Shown here piece after piece: positions 24,668-47,613 of a DNA stretch of 64,000 nucleotides. Source of the DNA: Clostridia bacterium. GTDB taxonomy: Bacteria > Bacillota > Clostridia > Christensenellales > CAG-138. The notes beneath the pieces were generated by a model, which worked only from the letters and a program-made list of their open reading frames with translations, ran no database searches and was not told where the DNA came from. The translations under genes and the position numbers were made by a program. Position 1 is the stretch's first letter. Each line of letters opens with the position of its first letter. The stretch spans positions 6,607 through 70,606 of the forward strand of contig JAZUMK010000030.1 of NCBI GenBank assembly GCA_045603585.1, in the 5' to 3' direction.

Positions 24668-25774
24668 CTATTTGCCGGCCTTTGCTGCCTTAACGGCTTC
24701 GGTCAGCATGGGGGCGACCTTGAACAGGTCACCTACGATGCCGTAGGATGCAACCTCAAAGATGGGTGCATCGGCATTCTTGTTCACGGCGATGATGCAC
24801 TCGGAATCCTGCATACCTGCGCGATGCTGAATGGCGCCGGAAATGCCCAGAGCAACATAGATGCGGGGATGTACGGTCTTGCCGGTCTGACCAACCTGGT
24901 GATCGGCGCTTATCCAGCCGGAGTCAACGCAGGCACGGGAAGAACCAACTACGCCGCCCAGAGCATCTGCCAGTTCCTGTGCAAGGGCGATGCCCTTTTC
25001 GGGATCCTTGCTGATGCCGCGGCCTACGGAAACGATAACATCGGCACCGATAAGGTCTACCAGTTTCTTGGCAACCTTCTGCACTTCGAGAACTTCAACA
25101 TGAATATCGGAAGCGCTGAGCTGTACGTCCACGTTTTCGATCACGGTCTTTGCTGCGCCTGCCTCATCGTAGGGCTGGGTCTGCATAACGCCGGGGCGAA
25201 CGGTGGACATCTGGGGACGGAAACGGGGGCAGATAATGGTAGCCATCAGGTGACCGCCGAATGCGGGACGGGTCATCTTCAGGTTGGTGTTCTGCTCAAA
25301 TTCGGTGTTGTCCACATCAATGGTGGAGGTGGTCTTAAGGAAGTCCTTGTACTTATCCACGTCTACATCCAGATGGGTGCAGTCTGCGGTAAGGCCGGTG
25401 TGCAGCCTTGCTGCGCAGCGGGGGCCAAGGTCACGGCCCAGATTAGTTGCGCCGATGAGGAATATCTCAGGCAGTTTATCCTGAATAAGGTCGCAAATTA
25501 CCTTGGTATAGCCGTCGGTGGTATAGTCCTTAAGCAGGGGGCTGTTGCAGTAGTAAACCTTATCTGCACCATAGCCGCCGAGGGACTTTATCTGAGCTTC
25601 TTCTATATCGGAGCCGAGAAGTACACCGCACAGTTCAACGCCCAGGTCATTGGCCAGCTTGCGTCCTTCGGAGAGCAGCTGGTGGCTAATGGACATTATA
25701 ACGCCGTCGCGCTGTTCGCAGAAAACCCATACGCCCTTGAAGGCAGCGGTATCATAGGATTTGAATTCAGCCAT
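24668..25774 (-). CDS. etfA: Electron transfer flavoprotein alpha subunit
   Basis: The 368-aa protein has a C-terminal FAD-binding region (IYVALGISGAIQHRAGM) and an EtfB partner immediately upstream. Confidence 0.9.
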   Translation of the reverse strand: MAEFKSYDTAAFKGVWVFCEQRDGVIMSISHQLLSEGRKLANDLGVELCGVLLGSDIEEAQIKSLGGYGADKVYYCNSPLLKDYTTDGYTKVICDLIQDKLPEIFLIGATNLGRDLGPRCAARLHTGLTADCTHLDVDVDKYKDFLKTTSTIDVDNTEFEQNTNLKMTRPAFGGHLMATIICPRFRPQMSTVRPGVMQTQPYDEAGAAKTVIENVDVQLSASDIHVEVLEVQKVAKKLVDLIGADVIVSVGRGISKDPEKGIALAQELADALGGVVGSSRACVDSGWISADHQVGQTGKTVHPRIYVALGISGAIQHRAGMQDSECIIAVNKNADAPIFEVASYGIVGDLFKVAPMLTEAVKAAKAGK

Positions 25775-25791
25775 TGTTCCAGTCTCCTCTC

Positions 25792-26592
25792 TTAGATAAG
25801 ATGTTTGCTGTCCAGGATGCCGATCAGCTGATCCACAGTGGACTTGTCAGCGCCTTCCAGCATCATGCCGGCTCCCTTGACCGGGGGAGAAAAGGACTTA
25901 TATACATTGGTGGGAGATCCCTTAAGACCGATGGTGGTGGCATCGATGAGGGGATCATCCTTCAGGGTGTTGTAATCGAATACATTCAGAGGCTTATTGT
26001 AGCATTCCATAATGCCGCGAACGGTCATATAGCGGGGCTTGTTCAGCTCCTTGACGCAGGTAATGAGGCAGGGAGTATTGGCCTTGAGCATCATGTAGCC
26101 ATCCTCGAGAAGGCGCTTTACAACAACGGACTTGCCTTCCAGCTTGATATCGGCGGCGTAGCTGATCTGGGGCAGATTCAGCTTTTCAGCGATCTGGGGA
26201 CCAACCTGAGCGGTATCGCCGTCGATTGCCTGACGGCCGCAGAATACGATATCGTCGGCTTCTACGCCGATCTTGTTGATAGCGGCAGCCAGGATCTGGG
26301 AAGTGGCATAGGTATCGGAACCGCCGAACTCACGGGCAGATACCAGAACAGCGCGGTCAGCACCCATTGCGAGCACTTCGCGGAGCATTCCTTCTGCGGG
26401 AGCGGGGCCCATGGAAACTGCTATAACTTCGCAGCCGGTTTCGTCCTTCAGCTGCAGGGCGGCTTCAACGGCAGCAAGGTCATCGTGGTTGGTTATCGCA
26501 GCCATCTTGCTGCGGTCCATAGTGCCGTCTTCCTTAACAGCAACTACGCCGGTGGTATCCGGAACCTGCTTTACGCATACAATACACTTCAT
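25792..26592 (-). CDS. etfB: Electron transfer flavoprotein beta subunit
   Basis: The 266-aa protein begins MKCIVCVKQVPDT, the typical EtfB N-terminus. Confidence 0.9.
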   Translation of the reverse strand: MKCIVCVKQVPDTTGVVAVKEDGTMDRSKMAAITNHDDLAAVEAALQLKDETGCEVIAVSMGPAPAEGMLREVLAMGADRAVLVSAREFGGSDTYATSQILAAAINKIGVEADDIVFCGRQAIDGDTAQVGPQIAEKLNLPQISYAADIKLEGKSVVVKRLLEDGYMMLKANTPCLITCVKELNKPRYMTVRGIMECYNKPLNVFDYNTLKDDPLIDATTIGLKGSPTNVYKSFSPPVKGAGMMLEGADKSTVDQLIGILDSKHLI

Positions 26593-26612
26593 ATTTATTT
26601 ATTCCTCCCCAA

Positions 26613-27755
26613 TCACTTCAAAAGCTCTTTGGCGATAACGATCTTCTGAACCTCGCTGGTGCCCTCGTAAATGGTGAGGATGCGAGCATCACGATAGATA
26701 CGCTCAATGGCGTAATCCTTCATATAACCATAACCGCCGTGGATCTGCAGCGCCTTTGCGGCAATCTCGTTTGCAACTTCAGCAGCATAGAACTTGGCCA
26801 TAGAAGAGTTCATGGCGGTAGGTTCGCCTCTGTCCTTCATGGCGGCGGCCTTAAGGTTCAGCAGCTTTGCAGCTTCCAGCTTGGTGGCCATTTCGGCCAG
26901 ATACCACTGGATACCCTGCTTGGTGGCGATGGGCTTGCCGAACTGGGAGCGCTGCTTTACATATTCAAGAGCAGTGTCAAAGGCAGCCTGTGCTTCGCCG
27001 CAGGCCTGTGCTGCAACGCCGATACGGCCGCTTTCAAGGCCGCTCATGGCTACGTTGAAGCCCTTGCCGACCTGACCCAGAACCTGAGACTTGTGAACTC
27101 GGCAATCCTCCAGAATCAGCTCGGAAACGGCTGCGGCGCGGATGCCCATCTTATCTTCGAGCTTACCTATAATGAAGCCGGGAGTGTCGCGATCCACGAT
27201 GAAAGCGGTCATGCCGCCGTGGCTTCTCTTTTTCTTATCGGTAACTGCGAAAACCAGAGCGTATGCGCCCTCATTGGGACCCAGGTTGCTTATGAAGCAC
27301 TTGGAACCGTTAAGTACCCAATAATCGCCATCCTGAACAGCAGTGGTCTGAAGGCTGCCTGCGTCAGAACCTGCACCGGGTTCGGTAAGACCGAATGCAC
27401 CCAGCTTGCCTTCGACGCAGGACATGCGCAGATACTTCTGCTTCTGCTCTTCGTTGGCATTCTTTACCAGTATGCCGTTTACCAGAAGCTGAACTACGAA
27501 CATCTCGGAAGTGCTGGAGCAGGCACGGGCAATTTCCATGGAAACCAGGGCCTTTTCAACTTCGCCCAGACCGGATCCGCCGTACTCTACGGGAACATTT
27601 ACACCCAGAAGGCCCAGCTTTGCCAGCTTGGTAACTGCTTCGGCGGGGAATCTACTGGTGCGATCCCATTCATCCGCATAAGGAGCGATCTCGTTATCGC
27701 AGAATTCACGGGTCATTTTTACGAGCATTTTTTGCTCTTTTGTCAGTTCGAACAA
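26613..27755 (-). CDS. Acyl-CoA dehydrogenase, short-chain (Bcd-like); substrate not assignable
   Basis: The 380-aa protein is collinear by eye with clostridial butyryl-CoA dehydrogenase. The catalytic Glu lies in IYEGTSEVQ. Confidence 0.9.
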   Translation of the reverse strand: MFELTKEQKMLVKMTREFCDNEIAPYADEWDRTSRFPAEAVTKLAKLGLLGVNVPVEYGGSGLGEVEKALVSMEIARACSSTSEMFVVQLLVNGILVKNANEEQKQKYLRMSCVEGKLGAFGLTEPGAGSDAGSLQTTAVQDGDYWVLNGSKCFISNLGPNEGAYALVFAVTDKKKRSHGGMTAFIVDRDTPGFIIGKLEDKMGIRAAAVSELILEDCRVHKSQVLGQVGKGFNVAMSGLESGRIGVAAQACGEAQAAFDTALEYVKQRSQFGKPIATKQGIQWYLAEMATKLEAAKLLNLKAAAMKDRGEPTAMNSSMAKFYAAEVANEIAAKALQIHGGYGYMKDYAIERIYRDARILTIYEGTSEVQKIVIAKELLK

Positions 27756-27775
27756 TGTAATCCCTCCTAAAATAA

Positions 27776-29080
27776 TTAGATTAATATACCGAGTTGTTTT
27801 GCAGCACTTGTAAGTTCATCGCGGAAATTGGGGTGTGCTATAGAGATAAGCGCCTTTGTCCTCTGGGACAGAGTCTTTCCTCTGAGCTTGGCCACGCCGT
27901 ATTCTGTTACGATGTAATCCACGTCATTTTTGCTGGTTGTAACAAGCGCGCCCTTGGAAAGTGTAGGGGCTATTCTGCTGACAGTTCCGCCTTTGGCAGT
28001 GGAGGGGAAGGCGATGAAGCTCTTACCGCCCTTGGACTGCACTGCTCCGCGCACATAATCAGCCTGTCCACCTGAACCGGACATGTGCTTTGTTCCCATG
28101 GATTCGGCACATACCTGACCGTAGAAGTCCACCTCAAGGGCAGCATTTACGGAGATAAAGTTGGGGTGCTGTGCAATAACGTTGGGGTCGTTTACGTAAT
28201 CCACCGGAAGCATTAAAAATGCGGGATTGTCATTTATAAAGTCATATGTGCGCTTGGTGCCAAGAACCAGTGTAGCAACGCTTTTGCCCTTGTGTATGGG
28301 CTTGAGTTGGTTGGTAACCACGCCGCTTTCGATCATGTCCACCATGCTTTCGGTAAAAAGCTCGGTGTGGATGCCCATGTCGTGCTTATTCTGTCTCAGG
28401 GCAAGGCCAACAGCCTCGGGGACTGCACCGATACCAAGCTGCAGGGTTGCTCCGTTGGGGATTTCCTCAGCTATCATTCCGCCTATAACGTGGCTTATCT
28501 CATCAATGGCAGTGGCGGGCAGCGCAGGCAGAGGGGTGTCGCTTTCGCAAAGAGCTGCAACCTGAGAAATATGAATCATGGGGGAACCGAATGTTCTTGG
28601 CATATTCGGATTTACTTCCAAATAAATGCGCTTTGCCTTGTTGTACAGTACCTCACTGTATGAGCCTACCGCTCCGCTGGAAAACCATCCGTGGCTGTCC
28701 ATCGGGGAAACAGTGGCAAAGAAGGCATCGGTGTCCACATAATCCCTGTGAAGGGAAGGAATATCACGATAATGGCATGACATAATGTCCGCGCGGCCTT
28801 CATTGACAGCCTTGCGCAAACCGCCGCCGGAAAACCAGGATACAGGGGTAATACCCTGGGAGGCCTCAGGACTTAAAGCGGAAAGGGGCATAACATCCAG
28901 TACGGAATGCAGCTTTACATCCTTGATGTCGCCGGCTTTGGCTCTTTCACCTATCTCGTTTATAATGTTTGTGGGTATAGCTGCGGCAATATCCATAGTA
29001 CAGTTCCAACCGGATTGTACCTGATCGGCTATCTGCTTTGCCGAGCACAGCTTTGATTTGTATTGTTCGCTAAATTCCAT
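27776..29080 (-). CDS. Acetyl-CoA hydrolase/transferase-family CoA-transferase (4-hydroxybutyrate/butyryl-CoA:acetate type)
   Basis: It is collinear with the Cat2/AbfT family (LQLGIGAVPEAV, GSGGQADYVRGA, VTEYGVAKLRGK). I place the start at MEFSEQYKSKL because AAGGAGAG lies upstream. Confidence 0.85.
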   Translation of the reverse strand: MEFSEQYKSKLCSAKQIADQVQSGWNCTMDIAAAIPTNIINEIGERAKAGDIKDVKLHSVLDVMPLSALSPEASQGITPVSWFSGGGLRKAVNEGRADIMSCHYRDIPSLHRDYVDTDAFFATVSPMDSHGWFSSGAVGSYSEVLYNKAKRIYLEVNPNMPRTFGSPMIHISQVAALCESDTPLPALPATAIDEISHVIGGMIAEEIPNGATLQLGIGAVPEAVGLALRQNKHDMGIHTELFTESMVDMIESGVVTNQLKPIHKGKSVATLVLGTKRTYDFINDNPAFLMLPVDYVNDPNVIAQHPNFISVNAALEVDFYGQVCAESMGTKHMSGSGGQADYVRGAVQSKGGKSFIAFPSTAKGGTVSRIAPTLSKGALVTTSKNDVDYIVTEYGVAKLRGKTLSQRTKALISIAHPNFRDELTSAAKQLGILI

Positions 29081-29160
29081 AAGCATCTCTCCTTTGGGGC
29101 AGAGCAAGTACGATAAGTAATGTACTTGCAAATACCCTGAAACAGATGAAAGATTAATTA

Positions 29161-29634: not shown

Positions 29635-30006
29635 TTATGCTTCGGTCATAATTGCCATTACGGCACCTATGACAGCTATCAGTTCATTCTGATCGGCAGA
29701 GCCACTGCTGATTTTTCTTATGGAACGAATGCGCATTCCTTCCATATTACCATCACAGTAGGAGGCGATTGATGCGGCGATAACGGCATCAAAGAGCTTC
29801 CTGTCAGTATGCATCAGGTCGTTTTCGGCAGGCTGAGAAACAGCGGCTGTCTGGGGCTGACCGCTTGCGGAAGCAGCGGTCTGCTGGGGCTGGGATTTAT
29901 CCTTGAGAATGGCGCTCATCAGCTTTGTTAAACAGATGAGGCAAATTAACCCAAAGAATACGGTTCCCATGCCTAAAAACAAAACAAACAAAGCATTAAC
30001 TTCCAA
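29635..30006 (-). CDS. OadG-family small membrane protein (decarboxylase anchor subunit, GcdD-like)
   Basis: It has a single N-terminal TM segment (ALFVLFLGMGTVFFGLICLICL) followed by a Gln/Ala-rich soluble tail. I propose a TTG start at 30006, 7 nt after an AAGGAGA. The longer ORF-track N-terminus has no RBS. Confidence 0.55.
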   Translation of the reverse strand: MEVNALFVLFLGMGTVFFGLICLICLTKLMSAILKDKSQPQQTAASASGQPQTAAVSQPAENDLMHTDRKLFDAVIAASIASYCDGNMEGMRIRSIRKISSGSADQNELIAVIGAVMAIMTEA

Positions 30007-30147
30007 AATAGTATCTCCTTTGTGTTTGATATTCCATTGGCAACGGGTAAAGCTTAGATCGACCGGCTGCAGTGTGTTCGCAATACACAAGCGTGTGCAG
30101 CAAAGCAGTATTTGCGAATGGCGGAGCAGCACATGCAGCAAATATGG

Positions 30148-30918
30148 TTAATCAGTAAAAGCCGGAGGCCGCTTTTCAAGAAAAGCGCTGATACCCTCGG
30201 TGTGATCGGCAGTGGTAAAGGCTTCTTTGAAGCATTCTGCCTCAGCCATGAGGGAAGAATGAAGCTGGTTTTCTATACCGATGTACATTGCCCTTTTGGC
30301 TAACGCAACGGCGCTTTTACTATTCTTGGCGATAGAAGCAGCGAGAGCCAGACAGTCATCCATAAGGTTTTCAGGTTCGCTCAGCTCATCTGCCAGACCC
30401 AGTTCCTCTGCATCGGCAGCGGCAATGATTTTTGCGGTGCTGATGAGCTGAAAGGCCTTTGAAAAGCCAACGACCCGGGAAAGACGCTGGGTGCCGCCAA
30501 AGCCGGGAATAAGTCCCAGAGTTACTTCGGGGAGACCGAGCTTTGCCTTGGAAGAAACAATGCGCATATCGCAGGCCAGAGCAAGCTCCAATCCGCCGCC
30601 CAATGCATAACCGTTTACTGCGGCTATAACAGGCTGGGGCAGCTCGGCAATGCCATTAAGCACTCTGTGACCCAGATGGGCAAAGTCCTTGGCTTCTTCT
30701 GCGGAGAACTTTGACATGGAAGCTATATCGCCGCCTGATGCAAAGGATTTACCTGTGCCGGTAAGAATTATTACCTTAACATCCTTCTGCTGGGAAGCTT
30801 CATGAAGGGCGTTTTCCAGGTCGAGCAGCAGGGATTTATCTATTGCGTTTAAGGTTTCGGGCCTGTTTAGTGTTATGATCGCTGTATTATTCAGCTTTTC
30901 AACTGTTACGCTTGACAT
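30148..30918 (-). CDS. Enoyl-CoA hydratase (crotonase family)
   Basis: Both catalytic Glu contexts are present (GGGLELALACD and LGLPEVTLGLIPG). Confidence 0.9.
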   Translation of the reverse strand: MSSVTVEKLNNTAIITLNRPETLNAIDKSLLLDLENALHEASQQKDVKVIILTGTGKSFASGGDIASMSKFSAEEAKDFAHLGHRVLNGIAELPQPVIAAVNGYALGGGLELALACDMRIVSSKAKLGLPEVTLGLIPGFGGTQRLSRVVGFSKAFQLISTAKIIAAADAEELGLADELSEPENLMDDCLALAASIAKNSKSAVALAKRAMYIGIENQLHSSLMAEAECFKEAFTTADHTEGISAFLEKRPPAFTD

Positions 30919-30927: not shown

Positions 30928-31770
30928 CTATTGATAGGTATAGAAGCCGCGGCCGGACTTTTTACCGTATCTGCCCGCTTCAACATACTGACGAAGCAGG
31001 GGGCAGGGACGATACTTGGGATCGCCATAGCCTTTGTACATGATCTCCAGTACAGAGAGGATGGTATCAAGGCCGATGAAGTCAGCAAGCTGAAGGGGAC
31101 CCATGGGGTGAGCCATACCCAGCTTCATGATTTCGTCAATGCCTTCGGGAGTGGCAACGCCTTCGTATACGCAGTAGATCGCCTCGTTAATCATAACCTG
31201 TAGAACCCTATTGGAAACAAAACCGGGAACATCACGTACTTCAATGGCAACCTTACCCATTTCCTCGCTGGTTTTGCAAACAAAATCGGTGGTTTCCTGA
31301 TCGGTTTCAAGGCCGCGGATAACTTCTACCAGGGTCTTTACAGGAACGGGATTCATAAAGTGCATGCCAATAACCTTCTCGGGACGCTTGGTAACGGCTG
31401 CAATGCTGGTGATAGGGAGGGAGGAGGTATTGGTGGCAAAGATGGTCTCAGGCTTGCAGATCTCATCCAGCTGCTTGAAAACGCTGCTCTTGATCTCCAT
31501 GTTTTCGATGATGGCTTCAATTACCAGATCGCAGTCAGCAGCATCCTGCAGGGAGGAAGAGGTGGTCAGCTTGCTGAGAACTTCTTCTTTTCTTTCTGCG
31601 GGGATCTTGCCCTTGTCCACATTCCTCTGCAGATTGCCGGCAATATAGGCCATACCCTTTTCAAGGGCTGCGGCTGCAGTGTCGGAGAGGATGGTATCAT
31701 AGCCTGCCTGTGCACAGCACTGTGCAATACCGCTGCCCATCTGGCCAGCGCCTAATACAAAAACTTTCAT
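30928..31770 (-). CDS. hbd: 3-hydroxybutyryl-CoA dehydrogenase
   Basis: It has MKVFVLGAGQMGSGIAQ (Rossmann fold) and the typical 280-aa Hbd layout. Confidence 0.9.
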   Translation of the reverse strand: MKVFVLGAGQMGSGIAQCCAQAGYDTILSDTAAAALEKGMAYIAGNLQRNVDKGKIPAERKEEVLSKLTTSSSLQDAADCDLVIEAIIENMEIKSSVFKQLDEICKPETIFATNTSSLPITSIAAVTKRPEKVIGMHFMNPVPVKTLVEVIRGLETDQETTDFVCKTSEEMGKVAIEVRDVPGFVSNRVLQVMINEAIYCVYEGVATPEGIDEIMKLGMAHPMGPLQLADFIGLDTILSVLEIMYKGYGDPKYRPCPLLRQYVEAGRYGKKSGRGFYTYQ

Positions 31771-31802: not shown

Positions 31803-32996
31803 TTAATCGTCTATAGTTACATAAACAGCGTCGCCCTGAGCCATTGCGGAGCATATTGCGCATATGCCGCTCTTCTTGCCGGAACGCCTGAGCTCGTAAA
31901 TAAGGGTCATAAGGATTCGTGCGCCGGTTGCGCCGATGGGATGTCCTACGGCTACTGCACCGCCGTTTACATTTACCCTTTCATTGCGGGTTTCGTCGTC
32001 CATGCCGATGACCTTGCAGCTTACCAAGGGAACGGCGGCAAAGGCTTCGTTTATCTCATACAGATCCACGTCCTTGTAGCTCAAATTGTTCTTCTTGAGC
32101 AGCTTGGAGGTTGCAAGCCCGGGGACTGTGGAAATCAGATGGGACTGCTGGGCAGCCTGTGAATAATCGCGTATGGTGGCCAGTATGGGAGCGCCAAGCT
32201 CTTCGGCCTTTTCTCTTGACATAATTACTATTGCAGAAGCGCCGTCATTGGTGCCGGGAGCATTGCCGGCGGTAACAGTGCCGTCAGGAATGAATACCGG
32301 CTTAAGGGCGGCCAGACCTTCAAGCGTGGAATCGGGTCTGGGAGATTCGTCCTTATCCATTACCATGGTGCCTTTGCGGGTTTTAATGGTAACAGGGAAG
32401 CGCTCATCATCGAATTTATGGGCGGCTTCACCTGCGGCCCACAGTTTCTGGGAACGGAGAGCCCATTCATCCTGCATTTCTCTGGTTACGCCGTATTCTA
32501 CGGCAACTTTGCCGCCTATAACGGCCATGTGAACTTTATTTTCGGGGCAGGTAAGGCCGTCGTAAAGCATGGAGTCTTCCAGAGCAACGGAACCCATACG
32601 GGTGCCCCAACGGGTTCCAAGGGAAAGATAGGGGAGATTGCTCATGCTTTCCATGCCGCCTGCAACGATGATATCGGCATCGCCTGCTTTTATCATCTGT
32701 GCGCCCAAAACAACGGCTTTGAGAGCAGAGCCGCAAGCCTTGTTGATTGTCAGCGCGGGTACGTCGTGAGGAATACCGCCCAAAATAGATGCCTGTCGTC
32801 CGGGGACCTGACCTGCGCCATCGGGCACTACGATACCCATGATGGTCTCATCCACCATGCTGCCTTCAATGCCTGCACGGGCAAGTGCCTCACGTATAGC
32901 CATGCCGCCAAGTTCTGCTACGCTGATGTCCTTGAGCATACCGCCGAACTTGCCGAATGGGGTTCGTGCTGCGCTTACAACTACAACTTCCTTCAT
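31803..32996 (-). CDS. Acetyl-CoA C-acetyltransferase (biosynthetic-type thiolase)
   Basis: It has the active-site Cys in NKACGSALKAV, the C-terminal NVNGGAVAVGHPIGATGARI, and CSAMAQG. Confidence 0.92.
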   Translation of the reverse strand: MKEVVVVSAARTPFGKFGGMLKDISVAELGGMAIREALARAGIEGSMVDETIMGIVVPDGAGQVPGRQASILGGIPHDVPALTINKACGSALKAVVLGAQMIKAGDADIIVAGGMESMSNLPYLSLGTRWGTRMGSVALEDSMLYDGLTCPENKVHMAVIGGKVAVEYGVTREMQDEWALRSQKLWAAGEAAHKFDDERFPVTIKTRKGTMVMDKDESPRPDSTLEGLAALKPVFIPDGTVTAGNAPGTNDGASAIVIMSREKAEELGAPILATIRDYSQAAQQSHLISTVPGLATSKLLKKNNLSYKDVDLYEINEAFAAVPLVSCKVIGMDDETRNERVNVNGGAVAVGHPIGATGARILMTLIYELRRSGKKSGICAICSAMAQGDAVYVTIDD

Positions 32997-33020: not shown

Positions 33021-33233
33021 TTACCCCCAGATATTGAAGCCATCGTCATCCATGTTGATTTCCTTCAGCAGGCAACGACTTCCGCCGGGGCAATCCGTTT
33101 TCTTATTGCAGTCTACGGGCTGTTCAAATGCATCTATCTGACAGCCCCCGCCATTATTGGCCGAAACCAGGATGGTGAGGGTGACCTCACCACCGATTTC
33201 GCACCTTTTTGTCATTTTGTATTCAAATTCCAT
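33021..33233 (-). CDS. Hypothetical 70-aa Cys-rich protein
   Basis: The ORF fills the gap between the two thiolase genes (7 nt and 24 nt spacers) and uses codons like its neighbours. It has five Cys, no recognisable family and a weak RBS. Confidence 0.45.
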   Translation of the reverse strand: MEFEYKMTKRCEIGGEVTLTILVSANNGGGCQIDAFEQPVDCNKKTDCPGGSRCLLKEINMDDDGFNIWG

Positions 33234-33240: not shown

Positions 33241-34419
33241 TTAGCCTAAGTCCATACCGCAGATGGTTATACCGGCTACGCAGCAGTAGGGACGGCCGCC
33301 CATGTTATGGGTCATGCCCAGACGTACGTTTTCTCTCTGACGCTTGCCGGCCTTGCCGTGGAACTGGAGCCACATTTCGTAGATCATCCTCAGGCCGCTG
33401 GCGCCGATGGGGTGACCGAAAGACTTGAGGCCACCGTCAATATTGATGGGCAGCTTGCCGTCTCTGTCATACTTGCCGTCCATGAAGTCCTTCCAGCCCT
33501 GACCGCGTTCACTGAAACCGAGGTCTTCGCTGATGAGCAGCTCGGTGATGGTGAAGCAGTCGTGCACTTCGGCAAGGCTGATCTGCTCCTTGGGGTTGGT
33601 TACACCGGCTTCCTTATAGGCGGCCTGTGCGGCATTGATGGTTTCGGAAACGTAGGTAAAGTCGTACTTGGAGCTCTTCTTGTTAAAGCCGTTGCCGGAG
33701 GCGATCTGCAGAGCCTTTACATACATGGGATCCTTGCGGTAGTTCTTTGCAAGGCTGGCTCTGGTAACGATGGCGCAGGAGCAGCCGTCGGATACGCCGG
33801 AGCAGTCCATTACGGTGAGGGGATATGCTATGTAAGGCATATTCAGTATCTTTTCCATGGGAACTTCCTTACGGTACATTGCCTTGGGGGTAAGTGCGCC
33901 GTTGGAATGGTTCTTGAAGGAAATATGAGCAAGTGCCTCGTGAAGCTGCTCGCCGCTGATGCCGTACTTATGGGCATAGGCAGAAGCGCACAGGGAGAAG
34001 GCAGCGGGAGTGGACATGAAGGGTTCGGTCATGTCGGACTCAACGTGGGGTACAACCAATCCGCTGTAACCGCCGTCCTTAAGCTTTTCAGCGCCGATGG
34101 CCATGGCAACATCGCAGGCGCCGGAAGCTACTGCGTAGCATGCGTTGCGGAAGGCATCGGTGCCGGAGCAGCACTTGTTTTCCAGGCGGGTTACGGGCTT
34201 GTATTCGCTCATCAGTCTGGTGGATAGAGCATCGCCTGCAAGGCCGGATTCAAAAGTGCCGAACCAGAATGCGTCAATATCCTTAAGCTCGATACCGGCA
34301 TCCTTCAGGGCCTCCTGAGATGCTTCTACGATAAGATCTTCAAGGCTGGCATCAAAGCGCTCTCCAAAATAGCTGCAGCCCATGCCGATAACGGCACATT
34401 GATCGCGTATACTTGCCAT
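33241..34419 (-). CDS. SCPx/archaeal-type thiolase-like protein
   Basis: It has the active-site region LENKCCSGTDAF and the C-terminal DGGLKSFGHPIGASG. ATG 34419 (MASIRDQ) lies 8 nt after an AAGGAGG and just downstream of the upstream gene's stop codon. Confidence 0.85.
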   Translation of the reverse strand: MASIRDQCAVIGMGCSYFGERFDASLEDLIVEASQEALKDAGIELKDIDAFWFGTFESGLAGDALSTRLMSEYKPVTRLENKCCSGTDAFRNACYAVASGACDVAMAIGAEKLKDGGYSGLVVPHVESDMTEPFMSTPAAFSLCASAYAHKYGISGEQLHEALAHISFKNHSNGALTPKAMYRKEVPMEKILNMPYIAYPLTVMDCSGVSDGCSCAIVTRASLAKNYRKDPMYVKALQIASGNGFNKKSSKYDFTYVSETINAAQAAYKEAGVTNPKEQISLAEVHDCFTITELLISEDLGFSERGQGWKDFMDGKYDRDGKLPINIDGGLKSFGHPIGASGLRMIYEMWLQFHGKAGKRQRENVRLGMTHNMGGRPYCCVAGITICGMDLG

Positions 34420-34420
34420 A

Positions 34421-36789: not shown

Positions 36790-36816
36790 AAAAGCGGCAT
36801 AAAGCCGCTTTTTGCA
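36790..36816. terminator. Bidirectional hairpin terminator after tetR
   Basis: AAAAGCGGCataaAGCCGCTTTTTG. Confidence 0.7.
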
Positions 36817-36829
36817 TGTTCGCTGATTA

Positions 36830-36930
36830 TTTCAATGAAACCTTAATTGAAATAAAACCTTTAATTATACTCTATAATTTTATGCTTGTCAATAATGATT
36901 CTTGACTTTGCCTATACCCAATGTTATACT
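36830..36930. promoter_or_regulatory. Bidirectional promoter/operator module, copy 2 (inverted relative to copy 1)
   Basis: Core sequence: TTGTCAATAATGATTCTTGACTTT (36886-36909).
- Plus strand: TTGACT (36902-36907), 17-nt spacer, TATACT (36925-36930), pointing to the gcdA-like gene.
- Minus strand: TTGACA, 17-nt spacer, TATAAT, pointing back toward tetR.
- Palindrome TTTCAATGAAA at 36830-36840. Confidence 0.55.
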
Positions 36931-36995
36931 TCTACTGTGTAAAGCTGTTTCTATATAACACATATAAAATATTACTGTGAAACAGGGAGGTTTCC

Positions 36996-38788: not shown

Positions 38789-39955
38789 ATGGCAGAACTT
38801 CCACTTAAAGGCATAAAAGTAGTTGAACTTACAACTTATGTAGCTGCTCCCATTTGCGGAAGAATGCTCTGCGATATGGGCGCCGAGGTAATAAAGATTG
38901 AGCCGCCCACAGGTGATGTGTGGAGACATCTGAGACGCAATGTGGCCACTGCTCCTTCCGGAGAGGTTGTAAACTCTATGTTCCAGATAACCAACGCCGG
39001 CAAAAAGAGCGTTGTTTTGAACCTCAGAGACCCTGCGGATATGGAAAACCTCCATAAACTCCTCGAAGATGCTGATGTATTCCTTACCAACAACCGTCTG
39101 TCCTCCCTGAAAAAGATGGGGCTGGATCACGATACTATCTGCAAGAAGTATCCTCACCTGATTTATGCTCTGCTTACCGGTTATGGTGAGGAAGGTCCCG
39201 ATGCAATGAAGCCCGGCTTTGACCTGGTGGCATTCTTCAGCATGTCCGGATATTTGCTGGATATGTCCTGTAAGGAAAATAAGTATCCTGCTTCCGCACC
39301 TACCGGCGCAGGCGATGTTACTTCCGGTATGGCACTGCTCAGCGGTATACTTGCCGCACTGTATAAGAAAAAGGAAACCGGCATGGGCGACTACGTTTCG
39401 GTATCCCTTTACAATACCGGCCTCTGGGTATACAGCACCCCCATTATGCGTGCCGGCGATCCTTACAATACCGAACGCCGTCTGAGCCGCAACGACATGT
39501 GTCCTCTGGCAACCATGTATCGCTGCGGAGATGATGAGTGGATACAGGTATCCATACTTAATGAGGTTGAGCAGGCTCCCGTGTTCTTCAGACTGCTGGG
39601 CGTACCCGAGCTTGCTGAGGACCCCAGATTTGCTACCGATAAGGCTCGCCTTAAGTACACTAAGGAACTGTTTGAGATCGTTGAACCCATATTCCTGACC
39701 AAGCCCAGCTATGAATGGCTGGAAATGCTTCAGAAGGAAGCTATCGTAAGCAGCCGCCTGGCACACTTCTCGGATGTTGCGTCCAGCGAGCAGGCGTGGG
39801 CAAACGGATATCTGGAAAACTTTACCTTCCCCAATGGGGAAACGGCGGTAATACCCTGTTCTCCCGTACGCCTTGAATCCATAGGCGTAGCTCCCTCCAA
39901 GAATGCGCCCGCACTGGGTGAAAACACTGAAGAGGTCCTCTCCAATCTGAAATAG
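38789..39955 (+). CDS. Family III (CaiB/BaiF) CoA-transferase
   Basis: The N-terminus is LKGIKVVELTTYVAAPICGRMLCDMGAEVIKIEPP, with a downstream Asp-containing PGFDLV region typical of the family. Confidence 0.88.
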   Translation: MAELPLKGIKVVELTTYVAAPICGRMLCDMGAEVIKIEPPTGDVWRHLRRNVATAPSGEVVNSMFQITNAGKKSVVLNLRDPADMENLHKLLEDADVFLTNNRLSSLKKMGLDHDTICKKYPHLIYALLTGYGEEGPDAMKPGFDLVAFFSMSGYLLDMSCKENKYPASAPTGAGDVTSGMALLSGILAALYKKKETGMGDYVSVSLYNTGLWVYSTPIMRAGDPYNTERRLSRNDMCPLATMYRCGDDEWIQVSILNEVEQAPVFFRLLGVPELAEDPRFATDKARLKYTKELFEIVEPIFLTKPSYEWLEMLQKEAIVSSRLAHFSDVASSEQAWANGYLENFTFPNGETAVIPCSPVRLESIGVAPSKNAPALGENTEEVLSNLK

Positions 39956-43020: not shown

Positions 43021-43022
43021 CT

Positions 43023-45675: not shown

Positions 45676-45790
45676 TTTGCGTTTCCTCCTGATTTTTTTG
45701 TTTTTTTGTAAGGTCATTGATAAGCAACTGGGGTTCAACAATTTCTTTTCATTGAATAACTTACTCGATTTGTACAACTCACTCGATGTT

Positions 45791-45892
45791 AGTATATAAG
45801 TCAGTCAAAAAAAAGTCAAGATAAATATTGACAAATACCATATAATAGAAATATAATATAAGTTTAAACATTCATTAACAAATTCAATGAAA
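45791..45892. promoter_or_regulatory. Bidirectional promoter/operator module, copy 3
   Basis: Core sequence: AAAGTCAAGATAAATATTGACAA (45812-45834).
- Minus strand: TTGACT, 17-nt spacer, TATACT (45796-45791), pointing to the ABC operon.
- Plus strand: TTGACA, 18-nt spacer, TATAAT (45852-45857).
- Palindrome-like ATTCAATGAAA at 45882-45892. Confidence 0.5.
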
Positions 45893-45966
45893 AAGTCAGC
45901 AAGCGATTTGCGGCGATTTTACATTGAGAAATTCACCGAAAGATTTAACAAAAAGCAAAACTTATT

Positions 45967-46035
45967 ATTATAAATAGATTTTTTTTGATTGTCAATCATG
46001 ATTTTCTTGACTTTGCGTGATTGCAGTGATATGGT
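45967..46035. promoter_or_regulatory. Bidirectional promoter/operator module, copy 4 (inverted relative to copy 3)
   Basis: Core sequence: TTGTCAATCATGATTTTCTTGACTTT (45989-46014).
- Plus strand: TTGACT (46007-46012), 17-nt spacer, TATGGT (46030-46035), pointing to the 3-hydroxyacyl-CoA dehydrogenase gene.
- Minus strand: TTGACA, 17-nt spacer, TATAAT (45972-45967). Confidence 0.5.
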
Positions 46036-46128
46036 AACAATTAGTCTTGATGATCAGCTATACAGTTTGTCTTGCTTGCTAACTCAACTTTACAACTCAC
46101 TCACAATTAACAGGAAAGGGATTCTTGT

Positions 46129-47001
46129 ATGGAACTGAATTCTATTAAGCATGTATGCGTGGCGGGCTGCGGCACTATGGGCAGACAGATCGCCATGAAC
46201 GCTGCCATTTACGGATACGATGTAAAGATTTACGATCTCAGCGAGGCTTCCAGAGAAAATTGCAGGAAGTGGAGCGAGGAGTATCTTCAGGGCCGTATCG
46301 ACAAGGGCCGCATGACCGTAGAACAGGTCGAGGATATCAAGAGCCGTTTCAATATACTTGATTCTTTGGAAGCTGCTGCTTCTGATGCGGATCTTGTAAT
46401 TGAGACCATTGTTGAGATTGAAGATGTTAAGAGGAGTTTCCTTAAGCAGGTAAGCGCAATTGTACGCGAGGATACTATCCTTGCCAGCAATTCCAGCTAT
46501 ATGCCTACTTCTCTTTTTGCCAATGATGTTGTAAACCCCGGCAGAATGGCAAACCTGCATTATTCCAATCCTGCCATCGTTATGAAAATGGCTGAAATCG
46601 CCTCCGGTGAACACACTGCGAAAGAAACCGTGGATACTCTTATGGAGTTTGCACGTTCAGTGGGCAAGGTGCCTGTTTGGATCCGTAAGGAGATAGATGG
46701 CTTTATCGGCAATAGAATTAAGCGCTGCGTAGACAGAGAAGCAAGATGGCTGGTTGAAAATGGCTATTGCACTCCTCAGGATGTTGATACTGTGCTTGAA
46801 ACCGGCTATGGCTATCCCAAGGGCCCCTTCAGGCTGTTGGATATGACCGGCGTTGATCTGGCTTTTGTTGTGCTTCGTGAGAAGTATCAGAAGACCGGTA
46901 TCAAGGATCCCGGCTACGATATGCTTGAAGAGATGTATAATGATGGCCGCTGGGGCGTAAAGACCGGCAAGGGCTTCTATGATTATACGGACAAGAAGTA
47001 A
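46129..47001 (+). CDS. 3-hydroxyacyl-CoA dehydrogenase family protein (second copy in the locus)
   Basis: It has the Rossmann motif VCVAGCGTMGRQIA. At 290 aa it has an Hbd-like architecture, but it is clearly divergent from the hbd at 30928-31770. Confidence 0.88.
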   Translation: MELNSIKHVCVAGCGTMGRQIAMNAAIYGYDVKIYDLSEASRENCRKWSEEYLQGRIDKGRMTVEQVEDIKSRFNILDSLEAAASDADLVIETIVEIEDVKRSFLKQVSAIVREDTILASNSSYMPTSLFANDVVNPGRMANLHYSNPAIVMKMAEIASGEHTAKETVDTLMEFARSVGKVPVWIRKEIDGFIGNRIKRCVDREARWLVENGYCTPQDVDTVLETGYGYPKGPFRLLDMTGVDLAFVVLREKYQKTGIKDPGYDMLEEMYNDGRWGVKTGKGFYDYTDKK

Positions 47002-47124
47002 TACGTAATTAATAAAATAGAAAGCAAAAACAAATGGGTTTGCCGTAAAACAAAAGTTTTACAGCAAACCCTATTAATTTTGAACCAATCATCTTAAACT
47101 GATCAGGCCGGGGCTGTGTTATAA

Positions 47125-47613
47125 TTACAGCCATGTTATGCTGTGCTGATCATTGCCGGTGCGAGGCGGCCGGTCATCCTTTACAAAAAAAGCGGCGGAC
47201 GCAGTACAGAATACCTGTTGGGTTTCCATATGATGAATATCCATGCTGGCATGTATAAGCTTGCGGCCCTCATTTGTCAAAGTGGCGCGTATTACTATCG
47301 GGTCATTACCGCAGATGCTTCGTACATAGTTGATATTTATATTGGTAGTAACGCATGCCTTGATATTCATGTATGACCTGCACAGTATACCGGCACAGGA
47401 ATCCAGCAGCCAGGCTATTGCACCACCGTGAAGATAATTGTAAATGTTCATTTCGCCCGGAGACATAATATGGGTAAGCTCTAATTGCCTCTGTTCTGCA
47501 TTACAGGCATAAAACTCAAGATTATGAGCGGGGATACCTGCATAGTGGGAGTTGTAATGGGATACATTTTGTTTCGCTCTTTCGGTAAGCTCCTGCTGAG
47601 TAGGTTTAATCAT
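47125..47613 (-). CDS. PaaI-family hotdog-fold thioesterase
   Basis: The 162-aa protein has NIYNYLHGGAIAWLLDS (the HGG motif). Confidence 0.78.
   Translation of the reverse strand: MIKPTQQELTERAKQNVSHYNSHYAGIPAHNLEFYACNAEQRQLELTHIMSPGEMNIYNYLHGGAIAWLLDSCAGILCRSYMNIKACVTTNININYVRSICGNDPIVIRATLTNEGRKLIHASMDIHHMETQQVFCTASAAFFVKDDRPPRTGNDQHSITWL

Follow-up and report, generated by a model that had tools for sequence, protein, structure and literature searches.

A putative TetR-controlled regulon for organic acid fermentation via CoA thioesters, with a pseudo-HMG-CoA-synthase thiolase complex

The acyl-CoA locus in the 64-kb window (the whole stretch of DNA analysed here) is best read, with a probability of about one half, as a TetR-controlled regulon that ferments an imported organic acid via CoA thioesters, the route converging on crotonyl-CoA. 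Evidence comes from profile searches of every protein and from comparison with related loci on metagenome and MAG contigs (L-numbered below).

Gene content and conservation of the locus

Family assignments of all locus genes were confirmed, and the gene inventory made earlier from the sequence alone holds in every call. The minus-strand operon (35839 to 24668) is given first, in the order of its genes, followed by the genes beyond it.

34421..35839, minus: pseudo-HMG-CoA-synthase (HMGCS-like)::DUF35 fusion; Pfam ACP_syn_III_C and OB_ChsH2_C; Zn ribbon C361/C364/C375/C378 and OB fold
33241..34440, minus: SCP2-type thiolase; NCBIfam PRK06157, 591 bits (cutoff 403)
33021..33233, minus: 70-aa Cys-rich protein, conserved small ORF
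31803..32996, minus: acetoacetyl-CoA-type thiolase (Thl); Thiolase_N/C; PRK08235, 519 bits (cutoff 526)
30928..31770, minus: 3-hydroxybutyryl-CoA dehydrogenase (Hbd1); PRK05808, 433 bits (cutoff 408)
30148..30918, minus: crotonase/short-chain enoyl-CoA hydratase (Crt); ECH_1, 226 bits; PRK05809, 287 bits (cutoff 394)
29635..30141, minus: OadG/GcdD-like membrane anchor; OAD_gamma, 57 bits
29161..29592, minus: biotin carboxyl carrier (BCCP, GcdC-like); Biotin_lipoyl; biotinylation motif EAMKME
27776..29131, minus: Cat2/4-hydroxybutyrate-type (family I-like) CoA-transferase; AcetylCoA_hydro/_C; TIGR03948, 352 bits (cutoff 675)
26613..27755, minus: short-chain acyl-CoA dehydrogenase/enoyl-CoA reductase (ACAD); top PDB match C. 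difficile Bcd 5OL2_C, 376 bits
25792..26592, minus: EtfB, bifurcating-type; AcrB equivalog, 498 bits (cutoff 475)
24668..25774, minus: EtfA, 368 aa; ETF and ETF_alpha; AcrA equivalog, 659 bits (cutoff 600)
21947..24551, minus: possible 3' extension of the operon (Pfam): FMN reductase 23940-24551, MBL-fold hydrolase 22940-23917, AEC-family transporter 21947-22876
36173..36775, plus: TetR-family regulator; TetR_N
36996..38762, plus: GcdA-like carboxyltransferase, divergent subfamily; 747 bits to GcdA 1PIX
38789..39955, plus: family III CoA-transferase (CaiB), putative activating enzyme; CoA_transf_3, 304 bits
40096..45777, minus: five-gene Opp/Dpp/Nik-type ABC importer (Pfam): OppF 40096-41049, OppD 41051-42094, OppC 42109-43020, OppB 43023-43952, family-5 binding protein 44080-45777
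46129..47001, plus: second 3-hydroxyacyl-CoA dehydrogenase (Hbd2); 3HCDH_N/C; top PDB match E. coli PaaH 3MOG, 161 bits

A PaaI-type hotdog thioesterase gene completes the set. As the sequence-only reading had stated, it has no copy of the promoter module described below, and it is also absent from the relatives' loci. The OadG-like ORF, 168 aa long from a TTG start, has its 5' end called too far upstream; the homologue in L081 is called with 124 aa. The true start of the SCP2-type thiolase is probably near 34419.

The twelve genes earlier assigned to the operon stand as its content, but it may extend further. Since the minus strand 3' of etfA carries no terminator-like site stronger than a 7-pair stem until 21893-21870, the operon may continue through the FMN reductase, MBL-fold hydrolase and AEC transporter genes. 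An FMN_red homologue (64% identity) follows Hbd2 in L125, and in L126 and L085 an MBL-fold gene (33% identity) comes after EtfA and Hbd2, respectively.

Contigs of independent samples show the gene set kept together in five further arrangements, with shuffled order and, in three of them, with ACAD/ETF of a different lineage. L081 has the gene order of the window. L083, L084 and L125 retain the thiolase complex, small ORF, ACAD, Cat2, ETF, TetR, GcdA, CaiB and Opp, having lost Thl-Hbd1-Crt-OadG-BCCP; Hbd2 and FMN reductase are present where the contig extends that far (L125). L126 keeps GcdA, Cat2, ACAD-ETF-MBL, Hbd2-CaiB and the thiolase complex in a different order. Related Thl copies (69-89% identity) occur in L001, L004, L085 and L087. 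Variation in content, e.g. the loss of the Thl-to-BCCP block in L083/L125 or an L085 in which neither GcdA nor Opp is visible, is what could be expected if unrelated acyl-CoA genes had met by accident. This is, however, highly unlikely: the same families are found together again in shuffled L126 and where ACAD/ETF has been exchanged for non-orthologous copies, and the units are tied by four copies of one promoter module, itself conserved in relatives. The adjacency is therefore functional, as had been supposed.

The pseudo-HMG-CoA-synthase and its thiolase

Top PDB matches of the HMGCS-like::DUF35 protein are PhlA and archaeal HMGCS. At the catalytic sites of its HMGCS-like domain, Glu is replaced by Thr, Cys by Leu and His by Tyr, and these sites are substituted in 111-115 of 116 family members. 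Judged by these residues, the HMGCS-like half has lost catalysis and serves a degradative SCP2-thiolase complex as scaffold. The SCP2-type thiolase, predicted to be the catalytic subunit of that complex, aligns to archaeal thiolase 6ESQ_A and retains the nucleophile Cys (NKCCSG) and the HDCF and GHP motifs. The label "archaeal-type", given to this module before, is correct for its architecture and no further. A complex of the same type, known biochemically, is the Pseudomonas fused HMGS-DUF35/ACAT complex, likewise lacking the catalytic tetrad, which cleaves acetoacetyl-CoA and does not produce HMG-CoA (PMC12960953).

Directly 3' of the SCP2-thiolase gene, without exception in the Bacillota subclade, lies the 70-aa ORF. 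Its product has no Pfam or NCBIfam match, and C11, C31, Q32, C42, C48, C54, L55 and L56 are invariant while overall identity falls to 25%. It may be an additional subunit of the thiolase complex.

Since the HMGCS-like domain is predicted to be dead, the locus would not be an HMG-CoA pathway. The sequence-only reading had offered a route through HMG-CoA and 3-methylglutaconyl-CoA to or from isovalerate, with HMG-CoA made by the thiolase/HMGCS module; this fails at its first step, and de novo HMG-CoA synthesis by the locus is refuted at the level of residues. In a variant, the SUGCT-like transferase would turn free 3-hydroxy-3-methylglutarate into its CoA ester, which would then lose water, undergo decarboxylation by the GcdA-like enzyme and end as isovaleryl-CoA after reduction. 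The formal name of SUGCT, to which CaiB is distantly related, is succinate-hydroxymethylglutarate CoA-transferase, a 3-methyl group could fit the divergent GcdA, and crotonase, ACAD/ETF and Cat2 could take the later steps. Nevertheless, the pairing of CaiB with Hbd2 implies oxidation of a secondary alcohol, impossible with HMG-CoA; the thiolases would be left without function; and crotonase is absent from the locus in L083/L125/L126. We consider any such route very improbable.

Dehydrogenase, carboxyltransferase and CoA-transferases

The ACAD scores 376 bits against Bcd and only 258 bits against glutaryl-CoA dehydrogenase 3MPI; the AcrC model gives 498 bits (cutoff 640), and the GDH_Des model gives 317 and 248 bits for the two ACAD lineages of these loci (cutoff 470). 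EtfB matches CarD 6FAH_B (266 bits) and C. difficile EtfB (238 bits), non-bifurcating ETFs reaching 92-108 bits, so that the ETF of the window is closest to bifurcating CarD and Bcd-Etf. These matches place ACAD/ETF with the electron-bifurcating Bcd/Car type and set it apart from glutaryl-CoA dehydrogenases. Its counterparts in L083/L125/L126 are only 41-48% identical, whereas distant L090, with no GcdA nearby, has copies 73-79% identical to those of the window; the cassette has therefore been replaced, not lost. Comparison of the loci shows that ACAD, bifurcating-type ETF and Cat2-type CoA-transferase have been recruited to such loci repeatedly. The Cat2-type protein matches 4-hydroxybutyrate CoA-transferase 3EH7 (373 bits) and is likely the terminal acyl-CoA:acetate transferase.

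Members of the GcdA-like clade are 75-98% identical to one another and at most 60% identical to proteins outside it. They deviate at 37-45 of the 244 positions that are at least 95% conserved in canonical GcdA (canonical median 7.5). L126, which is rearranged, is the only relative seen in which the gene does not adjoin caiB, and the two are predicted to be co-transcribed. The "Gcd parts" named earlier are indeed present as GcdA-like protein, biotin carrier and OadG-like protein; the membrane beta subunit GcdB is found nowhere in the 64 kb. This counts against our preferred reading, since decarboxylation as proposed requires GcdB, and so does the fact that the locus holds no recognised source of glutaconyl-CoA (neither 2-hydroxyglutaryl-CoA dehydratase nor a GDH-type ACAD). 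L085, where the core lacks GcdA in the visible stretch, speaks against it as well, although an OAD_beta fragment stands at the contig end.

CaiB scores about 135-142 bits against Rv3272, formyl-CoA transferase and SUGCT; its top NCBIfam match, succinate-glutarate CoA-transferase, gives 170 bits, far under the cutoff of 750. Hbd1 and Hbd2 are paralogues with 33-35% identity. Outside the clade the CaiB-Hbd2 pairing recurs in L085, L091 and L093: CaiB orthologues (61% identity) adjoin Hbd2 orthologues in L085, as in L126, and homologues (47-48%) stand beside the Hbd2 homologue in L091 and near it in L093. CaiB and Hbd2 thus form a conserved pair, always accompanied by thiolases, and Hbd2 is taken as the functional partner of CaiB.

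The other route proposed earlier, dicarboxylate beta-oxidation, is unlikely in the specific form with an odd-chain substrate (glutarate, pimelate or 3-hydroxypimelate). CaiB would activate the acid, ACAD/ETF would dehydrogenate glutaryl-CoA (and pimeloyl-CoA) without decarboxylation, Hbd2 and the SCP2-thiolase complex would turn 3-oxopimeloyl-CoA into glutaryl-CoA and acetyl-CoA, and Gcd would lead to crotonyl-CoA and on to butyrate and acetate. Such a scheme uses every gene and accounts for GcdA beside a family III transferase. CaiB with its SUGCT-type matches, Hbd2, whose closest solved relative PaaH is a 3-hydroxyadipyl-CoA dehydrogenase, the thiolase complex (carboxylated 3-oxoacyl-CoAs are known substrates of DUF35-associated SCP2 thiolases, e.g. 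BbsAB) and GcdA all fit it, and exactly these "specific" steps are retained in L083/L125. Its key step is unsupported because ACAD/ETF is of the bifurcating, reductive Bcd/Car type and the window lacks GcdB. Neither ACAD lineage is GDH-like, the best relatives being Bcd, Car and Acr; the window-type cassette occurs in L090 away from any GcdA; and a GcdA atypical at so many conserved positions is needless for plain glutaconyl-CoA.

It is also doubtful that the locus carries out butyrate fermentation of the ordinary kind, fed by Gcd, only the packaging being new. The thiolase complex, Thl, both Hbd proteins, Crt, ACAD/ETF and Cat2 would then be limited to acetoacetyl-, 3-hydroxybutyryl-, crotonyl- and butyryl-CoA, GcdA would decarboxylate glutaconyl-CoA from elsewhere (e.g. 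glutamate or 2-hydroxyglutarate fermentation), and CaiB would activate 3-hydroxybutyrate, acetoacetate or glutaconate. A complex of this kind, in the one case characterised, cleaves acetoacetyl-CoA (PMC12960953), Hbd1 exceeds its model cutoff and Thl almost does, ACAD/ETF is Bcd/Car-like, and the trio of thiolase, CaiB and 3HCDH in L085, L091 and L093 is exactly what 3-hydroxybutyrate use needs; GcdA genes are common in butyrate- and caproate-forming Oscillospiraceae. C4 chemistry alone, however, makes two thiolases, two Hbd paralogues and two CoA-transferases redundant, the GcdA next to CaiB belongs to a distinct subfamily, and with TetR, an importer of its own and operators in four modules the locus resembles inducible catabolism, not central fermentation.

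Regulation, import and proposed pathway

The promoter module that had been recognised in the sequence is present in four bidirectional copies of about 100 nt each, ahead of operon/tetR, gcdA-caiB, opp and hbd2.

35890..36035: module M1; weak TTGACT-17-TACACT toward the operon, perfect promoter and TTTCATTGAAAAAGCCAACGA box toward tetR
36815..36960: module M2 (inverted); TTGACT-17-TATACT toward gcdA, perfect promoter back toward the tetR terminator
45765..45905: module M3; TTGACT-17-TATACT toward opp, perfect promoter toward M4
45900..46060: module M4 (inverted); TTGACT-17-TATGGT toward hbd2, perfect promoter toward M3

The copies align with 67% mean column identity over about 150 nt, each has a perfect 12/12 sigma-70 consensus, and the core motif occurs twice against 0.06 expected by chance. 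Wherever the contig reaches, relatives have a copy between operon and tetR, one ahead of gcdA (L081/L082, L083, L087, L125) and one ahead of hbd2 (L125); module and TTTCATTGAAAAAGYCAACGA box stand at equivalent sites in L081, L083, L085, L087 and L125. A divergent arrangement of tetR and the thiolase-complex genes is seen in relatives (91% to 57% identity), as well as in distant L001, L004 and L090. The idea of one regulon is supported by these copies in the window and at matching sites in relatives, and the units would form a single repressor-type (TetR) regulon. Against our preferred reading, the perfect-consensus promoters of M2-M4 are directed away from the catabolic genes.

The importer is retained at 75-98% identity in L081, L083, L087 (partial) and L125. 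No NCBIfam model reached its cutoff for it (permease 334 against 350 for Opp2B), and the nearest solved relatives of the binding protein score just about 100 bits. These weak matches give no sign of a dicarboxylate ligand, and dicarboxylate binding is not known for family-5 binding proteins, a further point against the glutarate/pimelate scheme. That binding protein and CaiB have only distant characterised relatives also counts against the fermentation that we favour.

For this TetR-controlled fermentation we infer reaction directions and flux as follows. The substrate would be taken up by the ABC importer and converted to its CoA ester by the family III transferase. Hbd2 would oxidise a 3-hydroxyacyl-CoA to the 3-oxo form, from which first the SCP2-thiolase complex and next the ordinary thiolase would release acetyl-CoA units. 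Together with a beta subunit whose gene would lie elsewhere, the GcdA-like protein, biotin carrier and OadG would convert a carboxylated glutaconyl-type intermediate to crotonyl-CoA or an analogue. HMG-CoA would have no role, as product or substrate. Crotonyl-CoA or its analogue would then be dismutated, part going to acetyl-CoA through Crt, Hbd1 and Thl and the rest to a saturated acyl-CoA through ACAD/ETF. The Cat2-type transferase would pass the CoA of the latter to acetate or fresh substrate, and the end products of the fermentation would be short-chain fatty acids.

Gene content and promoter modules

ORF calling and profile searches bore out, almost line by line, the gene list that the sequence-only reading had drawn up for this acyl-CoA locus, including a complete butyrate-type core (thiolase, Hbd, crotonase, acyl-CoA dehydrogenase, EtfB, EtfA and a terminal-type CoA-transferase) in one unit. 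The remaining genes of the window are unrelated to the locus. Its parts are of known kinds, and the thiolase module is of a type first reported in 2026. Three features are new: the conserved combination of units under one repeated promoter module, a divergent subfamily of GcdA that goes with a family III CoA-transferase, and a conserved small Cys-rich ORF.

Genes of the locus, with the basis of each assignment in brackets
First gene of the operon running from 35839 to 24668, minus: HMGCS-like::DUF35 fusion (ORF calling and profile searches)
Operon, after the fusion gene, minus: SCP2-type thiolase (profile searches)
33021-33233, operon, after the SCP2 thiolase, minus: 70-aa Cys-rich ORF (ORF calling)
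Operon, after the 70-aa ORF, minus: acetoacetyl-CoA-type thiolase, Thl (7 bits under model cutoff)
Operon, after Thl, minus: Hbd1 (passes NCBIfam cutoff)
Operon, after Hbd1, minus: crotonase, Crt (family match, below specific cutoff)
Operon, after crotonase, minus: OadG-like protein (OAD_gamma)
Operon, after the OadG-like gene, minus: biotin carrier (Biotin_lipoyl, AMKM motif)
Operon, after the biotin carrier, minus: Cat2/4-hydroxybutyrate-type CoA-transferase (373 bits to 3EH7, below specific cutoff)
Operon end, to 24668, minus: acyl-CoA dehydrogenase (ACAD), EtfB, EtfA (family matches, ACAD below specific cutoff)
Right of the operon, first of the right-hand units: tetR (profile search)
36996-38762, right of tetR: GcdA-like carboxyltransferase (747 bits to Acidaminococcus fermentans GcdA, 1PIX)
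27 nt behind the gcdA-like gene: family III CoA-transferase, CaiB (profile search)
Right of CaiB, minus: five-gene Opp/Dpp/Nik-type ABC importer (profile searches)
Right of the importer: second 3-hydroxyacyl-CoA dehydrogenase, Hbd2 (profile search)
Right of Hbd2: PaaI-type thioesterase (profile search)

Four copies of a module of about 100-150 nt, with a mean column identity of 67% when aligned, are found at the gap between operon and tetR (M1), at gcdA (M2), at opp (M3) and at hbd2 (M4). The core AAAGTCAAGA-N6-ATTGACAA occurs exactly twice, against 0.06 occurrences expected, and the other two copies deviate from it by a 1-2-nt indel. Every module contains two -35 boxes back to back; one side carries a perfect TTGACA-17/18-TATAAT promoter followed by the TTTCATTGAA palindrome, the other a weaker TTGACT-17-TAnnnT promoter. 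The weaker promoter is directed at the operon, gcdA, opp and hbd2, the perfect one at tetR in M1 only. At equivalent positions in five related loci on metagenome or MAG contigs (L081, L083, L085, L087 and L125) the module is kept with an almost invariant 21-bp TTTCATTGAAAAAGYCAACGA box, so that phylogenetic footprinting favours a common control element. The proposal of a single regulon is thus upheld as regards the cis module, which the TetR-linked units share, control by TetR itself being putative. The PaaI gene indeed lacks the module, as had been noted, and is not conserved beside the locus either.

The perfect 12/12 sigma-70 promoters of M2-M4, together with their TTTCATTGAA boxes, are directed away from the catabolic genes:
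36864-36892, minus: perfect promoter of M2, antisense toward the tetR terminator at 36790-36812
45828-45857, plus: perfect promoter of M3, converging with the M4 promoter
45967-45995, minus: perfect promoter of M4, converging with the M3 promoter

The latter two converge into a gap of about 100 nt (45860-45960). These outward promoters may give short RNAs, serve as repressor sinks, or be duplication relics of the tetR promoter and 5' leader. A perfect TTTCATTGAAA palindrome, with the same core as the box of the modules, is also present far from the locus, at 61728-61738 in a protein-kinase-domain ORF (61150-62973); it is probably there by chance, but could be an extra operator.

On the strand of etfA, the genes 3' of it (21947-24551, minus) encode an FMN reductase, an MBL-fold hydrolase (Strvi_7410-like, with a score far under the model cutoff) and an AEC-family transporter, and no strong terminator was found after etfA before 21893-21870 (minus). 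In L125 an FMN reductase gene (64% identity) lies 3' of Hbd2, and MBL-fold genes (33% identity) lie 3' of EtfA in the related locus L126 and 3' of Hbd2 in L085. The three genes may be part of the pathway, for example in a lactonase or thioesterase step. Within opp, a strong hairpin (14-bp stem with 8 GC; 44021-44053, minus) separates the binding-protein gene from the first permease gene; a hairpin in this place is the usual way to obtain more binding protein than membrane components. Right of the locus, a full-length DUF4914 protein (1018 bits; 53893-55788) and two long ORFs without Pfam family (47742-49190, 482 aa; 51021-53477, 818 aa) appear unrelated to it.

Conservation of the neighbourhood

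Adjacency of the units, on which the sequence-only reading had staked its case, is conserved in related loci. Protein searches and look-ups of the contigs that carry the nearest homologues brought five further arrangements to light, from independent samples; a GTDB scan with HMGCS::DUF35, which returned relatives of at most 58%, served family definition and not synteny. L081 (94%) has the same gene order as the window. L083, L084 and L125 (84-85%) retain Opp, CaiB, GcdA, TetR, the thiolase complex, the small ORF, ACAD, Cat2 and EtfBA, and on the L125 contig, which extends further, Hbd2 and FMN reductase are seen as well. These three loci are devoid of Thl-Hbd1-Crt-OadG-BCCP, and their ACAD/ETF proteins are only 41-48% identical to those of the window. 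L087 (78%) reads OppF...CaiB-GcdA-TetR, then complex-small ORF-Thl-Hbd1-Crt. In L126 (77%) the order is shuffled (GcdA; Cat2; ACAD-EtfBA-MBL; Hbd2-CaiB-small ORF-SCP2 thiolase-pseudoHMGS), and L085 (75%) has only TetR and complex-small ORF-Thl-CaiB-Hbd2, then an MBL-fold gene. In the distant L090 (56%), ACAD, EtfB, EtfA and Cat2 are 69-79% identical to those of the window and lie beside a thiolase complex of their own. Such re-association, both after shuffling and after non-orthologous replacement, points to functional coupling and not to chance, and we regard an accidental adjacency as very unlikely.

The oldest core consists of TetR, the thiolase complex, a family III CoA-transferase, a 3-hydroxyacyl-CoA dehydrogenase (of 3HCDH or SDR type) and Thl. 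In L001, L004, L088 and L089 it is accompanied by TRAP or sugar-type transporters, and the trio CaiB-Hbd2-thiolase recurs, at 47-51% identity, in L091 and L093.

At the contig end of L085 (17370-17453), beside the MBL gene, there is a fragment 79% identical to the OAD_beta C-terminus, so that a decarboxylase may be linked to the core even where no GcdA shows. L093 contains at 13825-17200 homologues of CaiB (48%) and Hbd2 (51%), a thiolase, an SDR, a class III aminotransferase, an MlrC-type peptidase and a family-5 binding protein. This cluster adjoins a decarboxylase operon of OadG, a 146-aa ORF without Pfam match, OadB and an OadA-type protein. L093 is a second, independent case in which the CaiB-Hbd2 cassette stands beside a biotin-dependent Na+ decarboxylase.

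The thiolase complex and the small Cys-rich ORF

The sequence-only reading had recognised in the first genes of the operon an archaeal-type thiolase/HMGCS/DUF35 module. Its three-part architecture holds, the catalytic Glu, Cys and His of HMGCS do not. Among solved structures, the fusion protein is closest to the archaeal HMGCS of 6ESQ and to PhlA, which in the Pseudomonas acetyltransferase PhlACB is the subunit without catalytic function. In the alignment, Glu, Cys and His are replaced by Thr, Leu and Tyr, and the same residues prevail among 116 full-length homologues aligned with MAFFT (Thr in 111, Leu in 115, Tyr in 112). Of the E-C-H-N tetrad the Asn is kept, and a nearby Cys, at +2, is not conserved in the 116 homologues. 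The SCP2 thiolase, aligned to 6ESQ_A, retains the nucleophile Cys (NKCCSG), HDCF and GHP, and the DUF35 part comprises a CxxC...CxxC zinc ribbon (residues 361-378) and OB_ChsH2_C (residues 388-448). Scores to the 6ESQ chains are 193 bits for the thiolase, 110 for the HMGS-like half and 53 for DUF35 (6ESQ_E). Compared with the HMG-CoA-forming archaeal complex, thiolase motifs and DUF35 are therefore present and the HMGCS catalytic residues absent. The archaeal HMGS is active and draws acetyl-CoA condensation toward mevalonate, whereas the window half is predicted to be dead, so that the window complex would not perform channelled HMG-CoA synthesis.

A fused HMGS-DUF35/ACAT complex of P. fluorescens, devoid of the E-C-H-N tetrad and equipped with Cys/HDxF/GHx, forms neither HMG-CoA nor acetoacetyl-CoA from acetyl-CoA and cleaves acetoacetyl-CoA thiolytically; its authors count about 1,000 loci of this type (Nat Commun 2026, PMC12960953). 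The window complex resembles it in the one-protein fusion, the inactive HMGS half beside an intact SCP2 thiolase, and the absence of PKS/NRPS neighbours. It differs in keeping the tetrad Asn, in the conserved 62-74-aa Cys-rich ORF after the thiolase gene, and in heading a large TetR-linked fermentation operon. These residue patterns argue that the HMGCS-like half is a dead scaffold and the complex a degradative SCP2 thiolase. Our literature search returned nothing on the fused thiolase module in syntrophs.

The earlier suggestion of a route through HMG-CoA and 3-methylglutaconyl-CoA to isovalerate fails here, and we give it hardly any credence. It starts with HMG-CoA synthesis by a module whose HMGCS half is predicted to be dead, and the P. 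fluorescens homologue gives no HMG-CoA. A variant starting from free HMG would leave the CaiB-Hbd2 pair and both thiolases without role.

Because the best PDB matches were PhlA and PhlC, a phloroglucinol/triacetate route was considered as the ancestral function of CaiB, Hbd2 and thiolase. The clostridial phloroglucinol pathway employs PGR, DPGC and a BKACE-family lyase (PMC10470551). PGR and DPGC are absent from the locus and GcdA would have no place, which leaves this route only distantly conceivable.

The 70-aa ORF lies immediately 3' of the gene for the SCP2 thiolase in the window clade, in L001, L002 and L004, and in Syntrophomonas loci, altogether in 17 of 84 loci, every named one of Bacillota. 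Overall identity is 25-65%, with C11, V17, C31, Q32, C42, C48, C54, L55 and L56 invariant. The protein matches no Pfam or NCBIfam family; a single-sequence search of 1.8 billion representatives gave three small homologues only, besides repetitive false positives, and the AlphaFold model (pLDDT 61) is too poor to justify a fold search. The ORF is a genuine gene, and its product is a candidate for an unrecognised metal-binding subunit of the thiolase complex.

Decarboxylase parts and possible pathways

Homologues of the GcdA-like protein form a tight clade (75-98% identity), after which identity drops to at most 60% for canonical GcdAs (Oscillibacter, Caproiciproducens, Treponema and others). 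All clade members with readable neighbours come from this type of locus. Mean identity is about 70% among 112 canonical GcdAs, a set made up of the best matches to the window protein, and about 56% between that protein and the set. At the 244 columns at least 95% conserved in the canonical set, clade members deviate at 37-45 and canonical GcdAs at a median of 7.5 (maximum 25), as counted on the alignment. The changes include K154N, G168S, G191Q, H210K and N472C; G191Q directly precedes the conserved TNPAGGGYH, and the glycine-rich stretches are retained. Such divergence would fit a change of substrate or of partner. An exact-sequence look-up of the window GcdA gave no record, a metagenome scan with GcdA found only carboxyltransferases at 26-32% identity, and the literature search returned nothing on GcdA paired with a family III transferase.

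GcdC- and GcdD-like parts are present as the biotin carrier and the OadG-like protein. The membrane beta subunit of Na+-translocating glutaconyl-CoA decarboxylase, OAD_beta/GcdB, which removes CO2 from carboxybiotin, is absent among the 40 window ORFs scanned: the sole match to the model, 30.1 bits (cutoff 31.6), falls within the OadG-like ORF, and tblastn with an OAD_beta protein gave no match in the window. GcdB may be encoded elsewhere in the genome. As in the GcdABCD systems of A. fermentans and Clostridium symbiosum, a GcdA-type protein, biotin carrier and OadG-type anchor occur near Hbd, Crt, Thl and Bcd-Etf genes, and the logic of glutamate fermentation, decarboxylation to crotonyl-CoA followed by acetate and butyrate branches, would be shared. 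Unlike these systems, the locus has no GcdB, GctAB or 2-hydroxyglutaryl-CoA dehydratase, its GcdA is divergent, and the partner CoA-transferase is of family III instead of family I.

The characterised relatives of CaiB (Rv3272, formyl-CoA transferase, SUGCT) stand at about the 30% level only; one of its 40-50% homologues is named HadA-like by JGI. An AMACR-like racemase was rejected as its identity, the top relatives being transferases. Hbd2 is no Hbd orthologue (197 bits, cutoff 408), its best solved relative being PaaH, and the binding protein scores only about 100 bits to its matches, which are binders of peptides, opines, nickel and haem. Comparison of binding protein, CoA-transferase and Hbd2 with solved structures gave no clue to specificity.

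We propose, with a probability of about one half, that an imported acid would be converted to its CoA ester, CaiB and Hbd2 being the putative activating and oxidising pair. A 3-hydroxy intermediate would then be oxidised and cleaved thiolytically. A carboxylated ester of glutaconyl type would be decarboxylated to the crotonyl-CoA level by the predicted GcdA-type carboxyltransferase with its carrier and anchor. Through the full Thl-Hbd-Crt-ACAD/ETF set, the crotonyl-level ester would be dismutated to acetyl-CoA and a saturated acyl-CoA, whose CoA the Cat2-type enzyme would recycle.

Within or beside this model stands the specific dicarboxylate version, beta-oxidation of glutarate or pimelate, put forward from the sequence. 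In the lower benzoyl-CoA/pimelate pathway, 3-oxopimeloyl-CoA is converted through glutaryl-CoA and glutaconyl-CoA to crotonyl-CoA, and BbsAB, the benzoylsuccinyl-CoA thiolase, is a DUF35-assisted SCP2 thiolase acting on a carboxylated 3-oxoacyl-CoA. The locus would share with these systems family III activation, a DUF35-assisted SCP2 thiolase and Gcd-type decarboxylation. It differs in that the BbsA and BbsB models score far under their cutoffs and that a GDH-type dehydrogenase, needed for glutarate, and ring-cleavage genes are missing. Among solved structures, ACAD is closest to C. difficile Bcd (376 bits); 3MPI, a glutaryl-CoA dehydrogenase of the non-decarboxylating type, is 29th among the PDB matches (258 bits), and on the GDH_Des model (cutoff 470) the window ACAD reaches 317 bits and the replacement ACAD of L083 248 bits. 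EtfB scores 266 bits to bifurcating CarD, 238 to Bcd-EtfB and 92-108 to non-bifurcating ETFs, and both ETF subunits pass NCBIfam models derived from the C. propionicum acryloyl-CoA reductase ETF. A Bcd-like ACAD with a bifurcating-type ETF suggests an enoyl-CoA reductase role over glutaryl-CoA oxidation. This takes away the specific support for the key step, and we consider the glutarate/pimelate version rather unlikely.

A large part of the locus encodes standard butyrate chemistry. Another reading, which we also hold to be rather unlikely, is ordinary C4 chemistry with a Gcd feed-in. Of the clostridial butyrate operon (thl-hbd-crt-bcd-etfBA with a butyryl-CoA:acetate CoA-transferase), all six functions are present here in a single operon, and the ETF is of bifurcating type. 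Unlike that operon, ours has OadG and BCCP genes inserted and the thiolase complex at its head, its TetR-linked module is common to the importer, the second Hbd and the GcdA/CaiB pair, and EtfAB pass the acryloyl-CoA-reductase ETF models, not a Bcd-specific one.

A bolder and equally unlikely reading is that a hydroxy- or oxo-dicarboxylic acid is fermented in an energy-conserving way not described before. CaiB and Hbd2 would then produce a 3-oxo-dicarboxyl-CoA, such as 3-oxoglutaryl-CoA (3-hydroxyglutaconyl-CoA in its enol form), or else a glutaconyl-CoA bearing a substituent. This ester, and not plain glutaconyl-CoA, would be the substrate of the divergent GcdA, a biotin-dependent decarboxylase of new specificity, and the small five-Cys protein would be an unrecognised fourth component of the SCP2-thiolase complex.

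Returning to the general model of import, activation, thiolysis, decarboxylation and dismutation, a genuine and testable catabolic pathway without prior assignment is probably present in the locus. Genes for the fusion protein are routinely annotated as HMG-CoA synthase, as source names show, and genes of this kind are widespread in anaerobes (3,697 relatives with E <= 1e-50). A mevalonate/HMG annotation mis-predicts metabolism; here such a gene marks a putative breakdown thiolase. The repeated operator-bearing module and its TetR regulator offer a direct experimental handle. The locus, whose relatives include gut and cecum MAGs, represents, for uncultured Bacillota, a conserved, self-contained and putatively repressor-linked way of forming short-chain fatty acids. 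To know its substrate would enlarge the set of butyrate-forming pathways by one carbon source and possibly by a new specificity among biotin-dependent decarboxylases.
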